Below, piece after piece: positions 43,163 to 57,766 of a stretch of 64,000 nucleotides of DNA (within the stretch, counting starts at the first letter, position 1; each line of letters opens with the position of its first letter). The stretch comes from Escherichia coli (GTDB lineage Bacteria; Pseudomonadota; Gammaproteobacteria; Enterobacterales; Enterobacteriaceae). The DNA lies in NCBI RefSeq assembly GCF_029227855.1, contig NZ_CP074356.1; one strand, written 5' to 3'. The notes below the pieces were generated by a model. It made no database searches and had not been told where the DNA came from. It worked only from the letters and a program-made list of their open reading frames with translations. A program made the translations under genes and the position numbers.

Positions 43163-43853
43163 ATGCGATTTAACCTCATGATTTAAAATTGTTAATAATA
43201 AACAACACCATCCTATACCAACACAGATACCAACACGAAAAATCACTGGTTTTCGGCATCGAACCAGGACAATCAGGTCCTGATTGAGATACCGAGCTCT
43301 GTTACTCGTCATCTTCCTCGACAGGCTCCATTGCATCAAGTGGTACTCGCACCATCGCGATAGAACCAATCCGGATAAAAGCATCTTCCCCATCTATATC
43401 GGTTAACTGATATCGCTTACTTGATGCCGGATAATTGTGTCGATTGGCAACAGTGTACTCTTTCGTACAGCCAGAATGTGGCAGACTGAGGTGGAATAGA
43501 TAACGTCCGTATGCCCGCTGACCACCTCCGGGCGGGAGAGTGTGGTATCTGACATCATCATTTTTCCTTTCTGTTTATAAATGAAAACGCCAGCCGTGTT
43601 CAGGCTGACGTCAGGGAAGTGAAATCGGGTGAGTGATCTTCACTGGTTCTGGTGCAAAAGTTACTGTTGGCGCAGGGTACGGATACCCTCCCTGGCCTGT
43701 TCGATACAGCGCAACAGTGCTGCCGAACCTGTTTTATCCTCATCGTTGTCGAAGATAATTCCCGATTCGCAGTCGATATTGTCCTGCAGCCACGTAATCA
43801 GAATATCCAGCGCTGTTTCCGTGGTTAATGATTTCATGTTGTGAATTTCCGGA

Positions 43854-44345
43854 TTACCAGTCGAAAGTGGGTAAACCCGGCAGATATCCGGCACTGGCAT
43901 CCAGATGAATGAGACTGACACCATAACGCCGGATGAGTGTGACGACCAGACGACGGAACGTTTTTGACAGCCCCAGGCGCTTAAGCCGCAGAACCGGGTA
44001 TGACCACGCATCGGTACGTAACAGATAACCGGTACCGGTAAAATGAATCCATTCTGATTCACCGAAGTCACTGGTCTGGTGTGACAGCGAGTACAGCCAG
44101 GCGTTGTCCGTTTCCGTGATATGTGCGGTACTGCAGCGTATGCCGGTAAGGGCAACAAATGGTGGCGTGCAGTCTGCTGAGGTCCGGTCAGATTCATCAA
44201 CAACACGAAGGGAGTAGCCGTTATCGCAGACCATGTTAATCAGTTCAGCGAGATTAACACCATCAATGTCAACGACAATTCGCCCCATATTCAGTGCCTG
44301 TACGTTAACACTGTCGGCTTCCAGTGTCAGGGCCAGTTTCATCAT
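43854..44345 (-). CDS. YeeW-like hypothetical protein
   Basis: 163-aa ORF whose start overlaps the stop of the upstream cbtA-like gene (ATGA). Confidence 0.45.
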
Positions 44346-44716
44346 TTCGCCTCCGGATACTTACCCAGGGTGATATTGTTCACCGTTCTGTAGTTGTGGC
44401 GGGTCATCAGGCCTGTTGCCCGGCGAGCCCGGAGAATATCAATGCTGTTGATTAACTGCGACGAGGCTCCTGCGCTGAATCCCGGCTGGTCAGTTCGTAC
44501 CAGTGCGTATTTTTCCACGAGAAAGTTCACTGCATCACACAGTGAAATGCCTGCCTCAATATGCTGCTCAATCACGCGTTCATCCACGAACGGTGTGTCA
44601 TTCAGCGTAAGGCTGTAATGCTGGTCCAGTAACCGGGTGAGCAGTGTCTGCCAGATGGTGACGGGAGACGGGCAGCACGATACCTCCCGTACATGCGTGT
44701 CGGGTAATGTTTTCAT
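44342..44716 (-). CDS. cbtA: CbtA/YeeV-family toxin (type IV TA)
   Basis: 124 aa [46 protein letters not shown]... Confidence 0.8.
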
Positions 44717-44805
44717 ACTGAAGATTTTCCTGATATGCAGAGATAAAAAATGGGACAGTGGCGTGGTGAAAACACCAGGCCGGAGCAGAAGGTTATTCTG
44801 GTGGT

Positions 44806-45174
44806 TTACTTTTTCGTTTCAGGTGTCGGATAAACAGCCAGATAAACGTAACCACAGGAGCCGAGGGTGTCGGCTTCACAGGTCAGCCCCTTCGCATACA
44901 GTGTCACGGTATGCTGATGGCGGGGATTCAGTTCACCACTGGTGAGCATTAATTTCAGTTGTTTCATCAGCAGCGGAAAGGCCTGGTCCAGAGGGTACGC
45001 ATCCGCATCTCTGAACCGGCCTCTGATACCGGCACGGTCGGCAAGGTAATGCAACCGGTTACCCTCCTGCACCAGACGGGCGCCGAAACAGGGCGTCACT
45101 GTGCAGGGTAGTCCCCACCAGGGATGGTCGTCATTGTCATCGGGATGCGTTGTCCCGGAAAGTGTGTCTGACAC
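44806..45174 (-). CDS. cbeA: CbeA/YeeU-family antitoxin
   Basis: ~122 aa from a GTG start (V)[48 protein letters not shown]. Confidence 0.8.
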
Positions 45175-45336
45175 GATAAAATCCTCACAGAAAATCGGTG
45201 AATGATAGTTTAACGATGACGGGTCAGCCGGTGCACAGACCGGCTTCGGTGAAGGTGTATTCGTTGATGAGCAGGGCCTCATCCACAGCGGCATCTGAGC
45301 TCAGCCAGTCGTACTCGTTTTCCGGGTGACGGAACA

Positions 45337-45558
45337 TCAGTTCAGGGTGACGCTCATCAGCCGGACATACGGACCAAAACTGTCCTTACGGCGTTCTGCA
45401 AACACGGCCAGCACACCGGGAATATCCTGCACTTCACGACCGGTATACGCTTCAGCACTGCCGTGCCAGCGGTATTTGCCGGTACAGAACGGAAAAAGAC
45501 GGGATGCCGGATGCTGACGGTGAATACGCATGGCTTCGCCACGGGTGATGATTTTCAT
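45337..45558 (-). CDS. YeeT-like protein (DUF987)
   Basis: 73 aa MKIITRGEAMRIHRQHPASRLFPFCTGKYRWHG... Confidence 0.7.
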   Translation of the reverse strand: MKIITRGEAMRIHRQHPASRLFPFCTGKYRWHGSAEAYTGREVQDIPGVLAVFAERRKDSFGPYVRLMSVTLN

Positions 45559-55024: not shown

Positions 55025-55103
55025 GGGGATATAACAGGCAGCAGAATGCCGCCGGCAGGCCGGGGATTACGTCTGCTGCGGGTGAACGGATAACGGTCAG
55101 AAA

Positions 55104-55310
55104 TTACGGGCGGGGCTGTGCAATACGCGCCTGTAGCCAGGCTTCCACTTCACTTTTCAGCCAGCGGGAGCTGCGGCCCAGCTTGATGGGAGCCGGAAAG
55201 GCCCCATCCCTGATGAGCCTGTAAAACCACTTATCTGTCAGGCCGTTCAGTTGAGTGATAAATGCCATGTCGACCATCTGGTCATCCATCAGTGAAACTG
55301 GGGTAGCCAT
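55104..55310 (-). CDS. alpA: AlpA-family prophage transcriptional regulator
   Basis: MATPVSLMDDQMVDMAFITQLNGLTDKWFYRLIRDGAFPAPIKLGRSSRWLKSEVEAWL, 68 aa. Confidence 0.7.
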   Translation of the reverse strand: MATPVSLMDDQMVDMAFITQLNGLTDKWFYRLIRDGAFPAPIKLGRSSRWLKSEVEAWLQARIAQPRP

Positions 55311-56538
55311 GAGAATGTTCCTCCGGATGTTGTTAAACCAGCCGGTGTGGTCATGAAAACAGCGCGCCACCTTCACCGGCATAACAACCGGGGAGAAACG
55401 TAAAAAATAATCGGGAATGTGACCGCCAGGAGATAAACGGGGAGGTTGCGGTGGCTGAGCCGTACCGGTATACCGGGTGGTTGTTGCGAAAAGATGCTTC
55501 CGCACGCACGCGCGATAAAGAGGGGATAGTTTTCGTGAGGACAGGGAGAGAAGCAGGCGTTCTGATAATTGCAGAGTTGTTTTCGGAGGTGGTTACAGTG
55601 AGTCAGCCCGTTCCTGGCGAGGAGGAGACTGATATCACCGATGGGATAAGGCTGTCTGATTGGTATTATAAATATAAGAAGTCATCAGAGAGTAACGTAA
55701 AGGATTTGCCAGAGTAAGCTAAGAGAGTAAATCTCTCCGGTAACAGAGCGCTGTGAATCGTTCATGTATCAGAGTGCAGATACATGAACGCTGATGCGTA
55801 AAATCAGCAGTGACACGCCAGCTCCCCCTGTGCCCATTCCTGTATAAGACATGAACTGAGCGTATTAATGCTCCTGCCCTGAGACTGAGCGGTGAGTGAG
55901 GGGCTGAGAAATCCCTCTTGACAATGCTCTAAACCAGAAATACTTCCCCGGTTGTTGCGGTGCGTCCGGATCCCCGATAACGGAACACTAAGGCTGTATT
56001 GCGGGACACCAGGTAAGTGGCAGCCCGTAATACGTCAGGAGACGCGGGAAAAGTGAATTCCCACACGCGTTATAAACTTACCCTTGCGGAGCTGGAAGCC
56101 TTTAACTCTGCCGTTGACAACCGGCTGGCAGAACTGACAATGAACAAACTTTACGATCGCGCGCCGGCTTCCGTCTGGAAATATGTCACCTGAATATTGA
56201 AGCAGCGCTACGATGACTCCGGTGTTATCTGCACCGGAGGACCGGGAACATTAAGCGGTATAGCGACAACAAAGAATTCGAAATCAAAAGGGAATGGTGC
56301 CGGAGGCGTGGGCGGTAATAGGCTGATTTTCAGGTATTACCGGCTTACAACGTGTGGTTGATATTGAGGGGCTGTGAGTTTCGCGTATTTGTCAGAAACC
56401 CAGATGAGTTTTCCTGTATGGGACGAAATAAGGCAGCGGCAATACCTGGAAAATTTAATATGGTATGAAGGAGAACCTGTCGGTTACGCTTAATATACAC
56501 GGTACACTGTCAGCTCAGGGGATACATGAACCGTTATC

Positions 56539-56742
56539 TCACCAGCTACACAGTATACACACACTGACGCTGACAGTAGTCAGCAGGACCACAATAATCA
56601 GCGCCAGCAGTATGGTAACGATACGGTCTGTATTCCGGTAGTAGCCGAAGGGGTCGACAGAACCACAATACGGGCAACACACTGTATTATGAGTAATCGC
56701 GTTTCCACAATCCCTGCACTTCTTTTTGCGTATCACCATCAC
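56539..56742 (-). CDS. Small zinc-ribbon plus transmembrane-helix protein
   Basis: 67 aa with CRDCG...CCPYCG followed by a hydrophobic helix. Confidence 0.35.
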   Translation of the reverse strand: MMVIRKKKCRDCGNAITHNTVCCPYCGSVDPFGYYRNTDRIVTILLALIIVVLLTTVSVSVCILCSW

Positions 56743-56937
56743 TCCCTCCTCACAGCCTTACCCGTAACCGGTTTTTTACATTAAAAAACGACGCTGAAAA
56801 TTCAACCGTCAGTCCGGAGACGACCGTTCGGGTTATCACAGAGTGCCTGAGACAGTGTCCTGCCGGAGGTCACTTCAGGGACTCTGCGCATTTTTTACGA
56901 CGTGGCTATTCCGTATGAACCATACGGAGATTTAACC

Positions 56938-57507
56938 ATGACCTACAAATACAACCCCTTCTGGCAGCAACGTATTCGTGAGACGGTGCGGCACGCACTG
57001 AATGTTCATCCCCGCCTGACGGCATTGCGGGTTGACCTGCGTCTCCCGGATGTACCGGCAGCAACGGACGCAGCTGTGATATCCCGCTTCATCAATGCCC
57101 TGAAAGCCCGAATCGACGCTTACCAGAAACGTAAGCATCGGAAAGGTAAACGCGTGCATCCCACCACCCTGCATTACGTCTGGGCCCGGGAGTTTGGGGA
57201 GTTCAAAGGTAAAAAACACTATCACCTGATGCTGCTGGTCAACCGGGATACCTGGTGTCGTGCCGGTGATTACCGCGCTCCGGAGTCTCTGGCCGGGATG
57301 ATTAAACAGGCGTGGTGCAGTGCCCTGGGAGTGGATGTCGGGTGCCATGCCACGCTGGTGCATTTTCCGGCCTGGCCGGCGGTGTGGCTGGCGCGTAATG
57401 ATGACACCGGCTTTCAGCAAGTGCTGGAACGTGCTGACTATCTGGCGAAAGAGCATACCAAAGCTCACTGCACCGGTGAGCGCAATTTTGGCTGTAGCCG
57501 GAGTTGA
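56938..57507 (+). CDS. YagK/YfjJ-family protein
   Basis: MTYKYNPFWQQRIRETVRHALNVHPRLTALRVDLRLP... with GGAGA Shine-Dalgarno. Confidence 0.65.
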   Translation: MTYKYNPFWQQRIRETVRHALNVHPRLTALRVDLRLPDVPAATDAAVISRFINALKARIDAYQKRKHRKGKRVHPTTLHYVWAREFGEFKGKKHYHLMLLVNRDTWCRAGDYRAPESLAGMIKQAWCSALGVDVGCHATLVHFPAWPAVWLARNDDTGFQQVLERADYLAKEHTKAHCTGERNFGCSRS

Positions 57508-57766
57508 GCACGACTGGCGCGCCAATATCCGGCAAACCAAAAGTATGGGTTGTTGTCTGGCGGCAACGATGTATCCACTCGCCCACTGACTGTTTTTTAC
57601 GTCAGTGTTCCATTGTGTGACAACCACAGTGCTGTAACAGCAACCAGCCTGCTTTACCCAAACTCCAGTCCAGATTTTAACTGAACCGCCATTCACACCC
57701 TGACCACGCTGCCCGTACCGGGACGGCTGTTGCCTGCGTGTCGTCTGGCGGCTAAGGAATATGACT

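Follow-up and report, generated by a model that had tools for sequence, protein, structure and literature searches.

Gene content of the locus

In the window, a 64-kb stretch of E. coli chromosome that is 99.9% identical to the ETEC strain E24377A, we found a block of adhesin, toxin-antitoxin, RadC-like, antirestriction, GTPase and AlpA-type genes, followed on its right by further island DNA. All twelve minus-strand genes listed for this block by the initial annotation were found in Pfam analysis, in the order it had given. Absent from its list were the DUF957 gene, the DUF905 pseudogene, IsrC, the three GATC sites and the attR repeat. The features are as follows (coordinates, strand, description, basis).

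43093..43139, minus: native downstream flank of leuX with terminator, separated from leuX by the island (empty-site comparison)
43140..43162, minus: attR, degenerate direct repeat of the leuX tRNA 3' end (GTTTGAGTCCGGCCTTCGCACCA), distal island boundary (fuzzy match)
43302..43555, minus: remnants of two genes at the island end, one coding for an HTH regulator, the other hypothetical (RefSeq annotation of E24377A/F9792, coordinate transfer)
43661..43837, minus: DUF957-family small protein, 58 aa, intact ORF (named in relatives' RefSeq annotation)
43854..44345, minus: DUF5983 protein, YeeW-like (PF25638, PF19419)
44342..44716, minus: CbtA-family type IV toxin (PF06755, E 2.5e-60)
44806..45174, minus: CbeA/YeeU-family antitoxin (PF06154, E 3.8e-53)
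45337..45558, minus: DUF987 protein, YeeT (PF06174)
45621..46097, minus: RadC-like JAB domain protein, YeeS (PF04002, E 3.4e-44)
46113..46586, minus: antirestriction protein (Pfam Antirestrict family PF03230, E 2.2e-37)
46928..47746, minus: DUF932 protein, YfjQ-like (PF06067, E 2.6e-52)
~47864..48059, minus: DUF905 pseudogene, frameshifted (RefSeq annotation of E24377A and F9792)
48130..50976, minus: Ag43/Cah-family self-associating autotransporter adhesin, 948 aa, intact (Pfam domains)
50995..51231, minus: IsrC (Rfam IS102) small RNA / ag43 leader (RF00124)
51194..51229, minus: putative phase-variation switch (Dam/OxyR) upstream of ag43, with three GATC sites in 36 bp (read directly)
51348..52220, minus: YeeP/YfjP-family GTPase, 290 aa, intact (PF01926)
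52305..53221, minus: conserved hypothetical gene, 305 aa if intact, here split (differences from E24377A)
53222..54406, no strand: spacer of ~1.1 kb, no credible ORF
54407..55009, minus: conserved hypothetical protein, 200 aa, downstream of alpA (no family match)
55104..55310, minus: AlpA-family HTH regulator/excisionase, 68 aa (PF05930, PHROG 66)
56017..56193, plus: Hha/YmoA-family small nucleoid-associated regulator (PF05321, E 1.5e-17)
56938..57507, plus: YagK/YfjJ-family protein, 'inovirus Gp2 family' (PF11726, E 4.9e-48; weak PF23343)
57767..58590, plus: two overlapping zinc-ribbon genes, DUF7828 and Zn_ribbon_11 (Pfam for the first, relatives' RefSeq annotation for both)
59042..64000, no strand: further island DNA (annotation of F9792/E24377A, ~100% identical over this part)
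61342-62715, minus: phytase-like esterase (annotation of F9792 and E24377A)

The DUF5983 protein shares 71% identity with K-12 YeeW over 55 aa, and beside it are encoded proteins close to K-12 CbtA (85%), CbeA (89%), YeeT (97%) and YeeS (99%, compared to 77% for LfgB/YfjY of CP4-57). The antirestriction and DUF932 proteins share 75% identity with YfjX/LfgA of CP4-57 and K-12 YfjQ, respectively. The DUF957 gene matched nothing in Pfam, NCBIfam or PHROG, and the DUF905 pseudogene has zero listed differences from E24377A. CbtA blocks the polymerisation of FtsZ and MreB and is neutralised by CbeA, and from their families the pair encoded here would be such a toxin and its antitoxin. The roles of the antirestriction, RadC-like JAB, DUF932 and GTPase genes are poorly defined.

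The adhesin, whose start was read directly from the sequence, comprises ESPR, AIDA repeats, an autochaperone and an autotransporter beta-barrel domain (Pfam) and is 74% identical to K-12 Flu. IsrC scored 73.6 bits (gathering score 46 for RF00124) and contains a terminator hairpin at 51008-51035 (terminator scan); its placement matches that of K-12 isrC between yeeP and flu. Alignment revealed that the K-12 flu regulatory region likewise has three GATC sites around a shared ATCGATCGTTTATA. Ag43 is expressed phase-variably, under the control of Dam methylation and of OxyR binding to GATC sites, and causes cell aggregation and biofilm formation; the three sites upstream of ag43 suggest that the gene studied here is switched by Dam and OxyR in the same way, and that aggregation and biofilm formation may result.

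The GTPase shows 97% identity with the K-12 yeeP fragment, compared with 49% for YfjP. What had been listed as a frameshifted hypothetical is indeed split, into ORFs of 52 aa and 237 aa, by a T run at 53076 that is one base shorter than in E24377A (T8 vs T9), while its counterpart is intact in E24377A and F9792. This gene had no family match among Pfam, PHROG and NCBIfam profiles, and its AlphaFold model (all-alpha, pLDDT 82) led to no fold match. Homologues of the 200-aa hypothetical occur across Enterobacterales, also lacking a Pfam domain; its AlphaFold pLDDT of 60 is too low for use. At least 80% of the spacer between the two genes is covered in 1,285 genomes of E. coli, in most at ~98% identity, with counterparts annotated 'hypothetical' only; it gave no Rfam match at E ≤ 1, and G+C is 41% in the block 53001-54000. 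AlpA scored 30.1 bits (PF05930, cut-off 21) and matched PHROG 66, 'excisionase and transcriptional regulator', with E 2.4e-9. To its right, 55311-56538 had been described as free of long ORFs, and only small ones were detected there, an 88-aa hypothetical and the 58-aa Hha-family gene. The YagK/YfjJ-family protein is 36% identical to K-12 YfjJ, and 59042..64000 holds an IS66 remnant (tnpB, frameshifted tnpC), IS3 and IS5 scraps and an AriR-family gene.

Island boundary at a leuX-derived repeat

The attR repeat, 23 nt long, reproduces the final 24 nt of leuX at 22 positions (one substitution, one deletion) and lies on the same strand as leuX does in relatives. It was detected by fuzzy (gapped) matching, having been missed by an ungapped search, and is the sole site in the window resembling the leuX 3' end. 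Strain AHM21C2872I (NZ_CP104629.1; order ahr, leuX, 390-bp flank, SNF2, Mod, Res, nanS') carries the site naturally empty: there, leuX is immediately followed by the sequence to the left of 43140. The alignment places the junction exactly at attR: 43093..43139 is identical to the sequence straight after leuX in that strain, and its flank is 99.5% identical to window positions 43162-42751. In several other genomes among the matches listed, 43093-43162 lies at an annotated tRNA-Leu gene, and among the 2,147 genomes matched, many have matches that take in 43302..43555 and stop at attR or shortly beyond it.

The island has its left end at 43140, and on the right it continues past 64000 with IS66 remnants and other island DNA. 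The element overruns both ends of the 43600-57600 first given for the block. In F9792, attR and leuX are ~50 kb apart, with leuX ~29 kb past the right edge of the window; the island of E24377A is ~55 kb. Very probably, the segment from 43140 to at least 64000 is the distal part of a mosaic P4-integrase-family island of ~50 kb that is inserted into the tRNA gene leuX at its 3' end, with the 14-kb block, which had been taken for a self-contained element, as its conserved flu/yee end module.

Positions 43000-58000 are 99.9% identical to E24377A, and of 5,426 complete genomes 1,279 have at least 80% of this stretch at a single place; no complete RefSeq genome matched the window perfectly. Over 26001-59308, 25 substitutions and two single-base deletions separate it from E24377A. 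Modules of the flu/yee family occur in several copies: the median is three places per genome, and E24377A has four.

Integrase of the leuX island

In agreement with the initial annotation, tblastn searches of the whole 64-kb window, using K-12 IntA and the relatives' leuX integrase as queries, found no integrase. The gene had been expected just beyond alpA; in this kind of island, however, it sits at the tRNA-proximal end, with cargo genes between it and the flu/yee block. F9792 and E24377A have leuX followed by a P4-type integrase pseudogene, and in the closest complete genomes the sole island integrase adjoins leuX, ~36.7 kb past alpA and ~28 kb past the window edge. Read in three frames, the pseudogene is frameshifted near residue 100 and has an internal stop; beyond the HGFR box its C-terminus, with the region of the catalytic Tyr, is replaced by IS3. 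Of the eight genomes closest to the window, six (E24377A, F9792, F6326-C1, B4103-1, WP8-S18-ESBL-07 and AST262) share this leuX-pseudogene-IS3 junction at 99.9-100% identity, and it is covered to at least 80% in 203 genomes. An intact integrase with precise att sites just past the window, the finding that would speak for mobility, was not seen in the closest complete genomes. Neither a second integrase fragment (tblastn) nor a further leuX-type repeat besides leuX and attR, allowing four edits per 24 nt, was found in the island DNA of F9792 (complete) and E24377A (in part). The cargo of the relatives' leuX island includes capU, virK, lpxM/msbB2, fec and Ag43.

Comparison with known islands

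The proposed likeness to CP4-44 and CP4-57 was borne out by synteny and identity with both. The block corresponds to K-12 CP4-44 (yeeP-isrC-flu-yeeR-yeeS-yeeT-cbeA-cbtA-yeeW), whose genes likewise lie on a single strand and in matching order; nucleotide identity across the yeeW-yeeP stretch is 82-97%, and protein identity is 85-99% for CbtA, CbeA, YeeT, YeeS and YeeP. CP4-44 also has IsrC and three GATC sites upstream of the adhesin, and likewise lacks an annotated integrase. It differs in having yeeR between RadC and Ag43, where the window has the antirestriction, DUF932 and DUF905 content of CP4-57 and CP4-6, in a longer adhesin (1039 aa for K-12 Flu vs 948 aa), in its GTPase pseudogene (yeeP), intact here, and in its location on the cobU side in K-12 rather than at leuX. 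CP4-57 (K-12, ssrA; intA-yfjH-alpA...yfjP-yfjQ...yfjX-yfjY-ypjJ-yfjZ-ypjF) has the families in the same relative order at lower protein identity (GTPase 49%, DUF932 75%, antirestriction 75%, RadC 77%, DUF987 63%, antitoxin 67%, toxin 64%, YfjJ-like 36%). Both carry an AlpA-family gene, although that of the window is too diverged from K-12 AlpA for detection by tblastn at 1e-4. Unlike the window block, CP4-57 is inserted at ssrA, lacks Ag43 and has an intact IntA beside its own attachment site; it is reported to excise.

The island as a whole is of the same kind as K-12 KpLE2 and published leuX islands, PAI-ED1a-leuX (57 kb; MsbB2, VirK, fec, Ag43) and PAI-S88-leuX (39 kb; Fec, Ag43) (PMC7545054), all of which share its insertion site. 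The cargo of the ED1a and S88 islands is like that of the window's relatives, the likeness being one of site and listed cargo only. KpLE2 also has a pseudogenised intB beside leuX, but lacks the flu/yee block and has sgc/yjh genes between fec and nanS instead. In UPEC/ST131, GI-pheV is a modular tRNA-integrated island with a P4-type integrase and flu and yee modules, whose high SNP density was attributed to recombination; tRNA-integrated islands can have imperfect attR repeats, and in some strains intP4 is disrupted by IS elements (PMC11537424). Such SNP-dense modules resemble the window, where 16 of the 25 substitutions relative to E24377A are clustered in 51077-51633, although GI-pheV differs in site (pheV vs leuX) and cargo.

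Origin and mobility

As no integrase lies in the window and that of the relatives' leuX island is broken, the island is probably immobilised, as had been proposed; the integrase and attL state of the source strain itself is inferred from these relatives, whose integrase has the frameshift, stop and IS3 truncation, while attR, in the window, departs from leuX at two of 24 positions. Continued mobility would require that a P4-type integrase encoded elsewhere, together with AlpA, excise the island via leuX (attL) and the imperfect attR. AlpA is intact and 22 of 24 attR positions are kept, and the multi-copy module family makes paralogous integrases likely to be present. Because several related P4-type integrases are present in E. 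coli genomes and E24377A has four module places, excision catalysed in trans is conceivable. Nevertheless, an integrase of the P4 family generally recognises only its own tRNA site, the deletion within the attR core shifts the register, the cognate integrase is dead in all close relatives checked, and the identical dead-integrase junction common to many strains points to vertical inheritance of the island, so that we regard mobility as very unlikely.

The mosaic structure may also be read as two elements in tandem, the flu/yee block with alpA being a separate CP4-type element that lost its own integrase beside an older fec/virK leuX island. Scraps of IS1, IS3, IS5 and IS66 separate the block from the fec region, the YfjJ-like and zinc-ribbon genes to the right of alpA are encoded on the other strand, and KpLE2 has leuX, intB' and fec yet no flu/yee block. 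The mosaic is, however, equally explained by IS-mediated module shuffling, and the relatives' single leuX-derived repeat besides leuX, their want of a second integrase remnant and the combination of fec and Ag43 in published leuX islands (PMC7545054) make a separate element very unlikely. A defective prophage is hardly credible: the historical name 'cryptic prophage CP4-44 / CP4-57' and the PHROG matches of AlpA, DUF932 and the YfjJ-like protein suggest a phage origin, but capsid, tail, terminase, lysis and phage replication genes are absent from the block and from the relatives' island, and the cargo consists of adhesin, iron uptake and LPS-modification genes.

Flu/yee modules, and leuX islands with MsbB2, VirK, fec and Ag43, have already been described, and the block itself is ordinary. 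For the leuX island we propose that it was once integrated by a tyrosine-recombinase crossover between attP and the leuX 3' end and would no longer be able to excise itself, although a gene for an AlpA-type regulator/excisionase survives; it may now change through IS activity and recombination with paralogous modules.

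Gene content of the flu/yee block

Every gene that the initial annotation had listed for this block, the flu/yee block, was recovered on the minus strand and in the order it had claimed (Pfam).

Genes of the block (window positions)
43854-44345, minus strand: DUF5983 protein, YeeW-like (Pfam)
44342-44716, minus strand: CbtA (PF06755, E 2.5e-60)
44806-45174, minus strand: CbeA (PF06154, E 3.8e-53)
45337-45558, minus strand: DUF987 protein, YeeT (Pfam)
45621-46097, minus strand: RadC-like JAB protein (Pfam)
46113-46586, minus strand: antirestriction protein (PF03230, E 2.2e-37, full profile)
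46928-47746, minus strand: DUF932 protein (Pfam)
48130-50976, minus strand: Ag43, 948 aa (signal peptide extension, AIDA repeats, autochaperone, beta-barrel)
51348-52220, minus strand: MMR_HSR1-type GTPase (Pfam)
52305-53221, minus strand: hypothetical protein, split
54407-55009, minus strand: hypothetical protein, 200 aa
55104-55310, minus strand: AlpA-family HTH protein (PF05930, 30.1 bits, cut-off 21; PHROG 66, E 2.4e-9)

The protein called 'KlcA-like antirestriction' has the Antirestrict domain PF03230 (E 2.2e-37), the activity itself being predicted, as is the role of the AlpA protein, for which the PHROG 66 label reads 'excisionase and transcriptional regulator'. Overlooked until now were a 58-aa DUF957 gene (43661-43837), a frameshifted DUF905 pseudogene (~47864-48059), the IsrC small RNA (50995-51231), three GATC sites upstream of ag43 (51194-51229) and the island boundary (attR, 43140-43162). 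The stretch from alpA to the right edge of the window contains a gene of the YagK/YfjJ family (56938-57507), two genes for zinc-ribbon proteins, remnants of IS66, a phytase-like esterase gene and scraps of IS elements. A true prophage was rejected, as virion genes are missing.

The hypothetical protein of 200 aa occurs widely across Enterobacterales; it has no domain, and its AlphaFold model (pLDDT 60) was unusable. The protein of the split gene, 305 aa when whole, gave no match in Pfam, NCBIfam, PHROG, PADLOC or PDB sequences; its AlphaFold model is all-alpha and confident (pLDDT 82), a fold search with it returned no meaningful match, and the C-terminus (VQFFLD...RRLSTGEMLHDLIVEEY) resembles, by eye, a ribbon-helix-helix motif. 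Between these two conserved hypothetical genes lies a spacer of ~1.1 kb (53222-54406; 41% G+C in the block 53001-54000) with no credible ORF and no Rfam match at E ≤ 1. At least 80% of this spacer is covered in 1,285 genomes of E. coli, in most cases at ~98% identity.

The block is the distal end of an island in leuX

The window belongs to the E. coli chromosome. It matches enterotoxigenic strain E24377A (NC_009801.1) at ~100% identity over 20000-44000 and 99.9% over 43000-58000, and strains F9792 and F6326-C1 at ~100% over 55000-64000. In 1,279 of the 5,426 complete genomes of E. coli, a single place covers at least 80% of the region 43000-58000, and segments of this region recur, with a median of three occurrences per genome.

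Reading the sequence to the left of the last module gene, followed by an indel-tolerant search, revealed GTTTGAGTCCGGCCTTCGCACCA at 43140-43162 on the minus strand, which equals the final 24 nt of leuX apart from one substitution and one deletion (22 of 24 positions match the leuX 3' end) and has the orientation of leuX in the relatives. An ungapped search of the window for the leuX 3' end with up to three mismatches had found no match; the repeat carries a one-base deletion. This repeat, attR, is the sole leuX-end repeat in the window and, besides leuX itself, the sole one in the island DNA fetched from the relatives; the window holds no tRNA gene, and attL (leuX) was seen in the relatives only. 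A search for the junction led to an empty site in strain AHM21C2872I (NZ_CP104629.1), where leuX is followed at 99.5% identity by the counterpart of window 43139-42751 and, beyond this flank, by genes for SNF2, methyltransferase and helicase proteins, a truncated nanS, nanM, nanC and fimB; the island is absent. Three-way alignment placed the junction at the base after ...GCACCA. Insertion at a tRNA 3' end, bounded by a direct repeat of that end, is seen from attR in the window and from the empty site in NZ_CP104629.1. Therefore, from attR and the empty site, the DNA from leuX to 43140 is one discrete insertion, and the block is its distal end. Tandem accretion is not supported, as a search of the relatives' island DNA revealed neither a second integrase nor a second att site.

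The extent first proposed for the element, 43600-57600, is too short, since the island reaches 43140 on the left and passes 64000 on the right. Past the window, F9792 and E24377A carry an IS1 remnant, fecIRABCDE, and IS and group II intron debris, then a BCCT transporter gene, lpxM/msbB2, virK, capU, an integrase pseudogene and the leuX tRNA gene. The island measures ~50.2 kb in F9792 and ~55.4 kb in E24377A, the latter having extra IS66 copies. Projected onto the genome studied here, leuX would lie ~29.3 kb past the right edge of the window and the integrase pseudogene ~36.7 kb from alpA. Two ltrA copies (group II intron reverse transcriptase/maturase) sit inside IS3-family remnants of the F9792 island (L002, its DNA outside the window, 12835-14343 and 28285-29793), and E24377A has the stretch between the two copies in the opposite orientation to F9792.

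The integrase is a truncated pseudogene in the closest relatives

When the whole 64-kb window was searched by tblastn with K-12 IntA (the CP4-57 integrase) and the relatives' leuX integrase, no integrase was detected. The interval 55311-56538, in which none had been seen before, indeed contains no more than a hypothetical ORF of 88 aa and an Hha-family gene of 58 aa. A match of 14-28 aa at 63113-63194 was discarded as integrase, as the matching query segment lies where IS3 cuts off the integrase pseudogene, and the relatives' matches for this segment fall on an annotated IS3 fragment; otherwise the searches returned noise alone. The Hha/YmoA-family gene near alpA (56017-56193, plus strand, 58 aa; PF05321, E 1.5e-17) could link island genes to H-NS silencing.

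In F9792 and E24377A a P4-type integrase, 33-42% identical to IntA, is present next to leuX as a pseudogene, and no second integrase fragment was found in the island DNA fetched from these strains. It aligns to IntA in two frames (residues 8-104 and 110-352), contains a frameshift and an internal stop, and its reading passes into IS3 sequence soon after the HGFR box, so that the region of the catalytic tyrosine is gone. The junction of leuX, pseudogene and IS3 is 99.9-100% identical in E24377A, F9792, F6326-C1, B4103-1, WP8-S18-ESBL-07 and AST262; these six are among the eight genomes nearest to the window. At least 80% of the junction is covered in 203 genomes. The integrase had been expected just beyond alpA; in the relatives it instead adjoins leuX, ~36.7 kb from alpA. 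No intact integrase with precise att sites just beyond the window was found in the nearest genomes, and the dead junction that most of them have in common supports the earlier view that the element is probably immobilised, which for the genome studied here we infer from the dead integrase of the relatives and the imperfect attR.

Comparison with known elements

The proposed likeness to CP4-44 and CP4-57 held on comparison, with the same order and homologues in CP4-44 and counterparts in CP4-57. From yeeW to yeeP, K-12 CP4-44 aligned in the same order at 82-97% nucleotide identity, with protein identities of 85% (CbtA), 89% (CbeA), 97% (YeeT), 99% (YeeS) and 74% (Ag43), and of 97% for YeeP over the K-12 fragment, whereas K-12 has yeeR where the block has antirestriction, DUF932 and DUF905' genes. 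The CP4-57 counterparts are 49-77% identical (36% for the YfjJ-like protein), and CP4-57, unlike the block, keeps an intact intA beside alpA. In KpLE2, the leuX element of K-12, intB is likewise a pseudogene. Islands in leuX with "MsbB2, VirK, fec, Ag43" (ED1a) and "Fec, Ag43" (S88) have been tabulated (PMC7545054), and PMC11537424 describes tRNA-integrated islands with flu and yee modules, attR repeats that are imperfect and intP4 genes disrupted by IS. As E. coli genomic islands go, this one is ordinary and of a kind described before, and the block holds nothing that would surprise a specialist in such islands.

Predicted functions of Ag43, IsrC and CbtA/CbeA

Ag43 is encoded by one intact ORF with ESPR, six AIDA repeat stretches, AC_1 and Autotransporter domains (Pfam) and is 74% identical to K-12 Flu. 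The three GATC sites align with the K-12 ag43 regulatory region, with spacing that differs by 13 nt, and form a predicted Dam/OxyR switch; by homology to K-12, expression would be turned on or off by Dam methylation versus OxyR binding at these sites. Both upstream regions have the IsrC terminator, the leader and a ATCGATCGTTTATA motif in common. IsrC (Rfam RF00124, IS102 RNA) scored 73.6 bits against a gathering threshold of 46 over the full-length model (1-206) and sits between the GTPase gene and ag43, the same place as in K-12. A promoter scan gave sites no more numerous than in shuffled sequence.

The CbtA and CbeA genes (Pfam) are neighbours separated by 89 bp, the antitoxin gene preceding the toxin gene on the minus strand, and the proteins are 85% and 89% identical to their K-12 counterparts, as expected for a pair of this family. 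In K-12 the toxin inhibits FtsZ and MreB, and the antitoxin works without binding the toxin; by homology, the pair described here would be a type IV toxin-antitoxin system with the same targets. PMC5371832 describes this family. CP4-57 LfgB (YfjY), the homologue of the RadC-like protein, has recently been reported to be a protease (PMC10846083).

T-run deletions and a cluster of substitutions

The hypothetical gene called frameshifted in the initial annotation is truly so in this sequence, being one T short in a T9 run at 53076 compared to E24377A. The deletion splits an otherwise intact 305-aa gene that is whole in E24377A and F9792. A truncated version of 237 aa is found in further deposited genomes as well (P0010, 111 member sequences). 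Compared to E24377A the window has three indels, at 38479, 53076 and 63834; each is the loss of one T, from runs of 7, 9 and 10 T, and two disrupt a gene. Under-calling of homopolymers in the assembly and real slippage fit this pattern equally. On an improbable reading, the differences in the 305-aa gene (53076) and the neighbouring type III methyltransferase gene (38479) are real on/off switching, not sequencing error.

Of the 25 substitutions relative to E24377A over 33 kb, 16 fall within ~560 bp (51077-51633), which span the IsrC region and the 3' half of the GTPase gene. This cluster looks like a patch probably recombined from a paralogous copy of the module, in agreement with what PMC11537424 reports on recombination in flu and yee modules.

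Genes outside the island

Just outside attR lies a three-gene cassette on the minus strand (33334-42750), which directly adjoins leuX in the empty-site strain. It encodes an SNF2 protein (best PADLOC match DrmD, E 1.3e-199), a type III methyltransferase of 1040 aa and a type III restriction enzyme of 1126 aa. The methyltransferase gene is split in the window by a T6 versus T7 difference at 38479, so that either the gene is dead or phase-off, or the difference is a sequencing error. To the left, on the plus strand (31800-32672), is a gene annotated in the relatives as a phosphorothioated-DNA-binding restriction endonuclease, with PADLOC matches to HNH and type IV methyl-directed restriction enzyme and with HNH remnants on its left; it is a further member of the small defence cluster that lies between leuX and nanS.

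The left 26 kb of the window are core genome, from btsT to fimH. According to the E24377A annotation and the K-12 layout, the type 1 fimbrial operon is truncated (~25680-31173), with fimB, fimE, fimA, fimI and fimC absent. In the same E24377A annotation, fimD is without its N-terminus and adjoins an IS1 copy (~26588-27276), nanS is shortened (~30607-31173), and an IS1 remnant (~3998-4694) and a BrnT/BrnA toxin-antitoxin pair (~3223-3799), together at ~3223-4694, are the sole annotated features between mdtM and yjiA. The corresponding position in K-12 is presumably occupied by the hsd-mcr-mrr 'immigration control region'.

Origin and significance of the island

The island would have entered the leuX 3' end by a tyrosine-recombinase crossover; judged from the three-way junction alignment, it would bring its own terminator-like sequence after leuX. 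With its integrase dead, it would since have been inherited vertically and have changed through IS activity and recombination with paralogues. It seems very improbable that the conserved end block, with its YfjJ/YagK protein (related to the gpII nickases of filamentous phages), antirestriction protein, RadC-like JAB protein, DUF932 protein, GTPase and toxin-antitoxin pair, is a working unit for entry of the island into new hosts as single-stranded DNA. Such a unit would be likened to the anti-defence leading regions of conjugative plasmids; if true, the block would matter for horizontal spread even with a dead integrase.

The boundary at 43140-43162 and the documented empty site provide the correct annotation of the block as the distal module of a leuX island. 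The absent integrase is explained by the pseudogene ~37 kb away in the relatives, with no need for an unusual integrase-less element, and the SNF2/type III restriction cassette thereby falls beyond the island boundary, right in the leuX flank.
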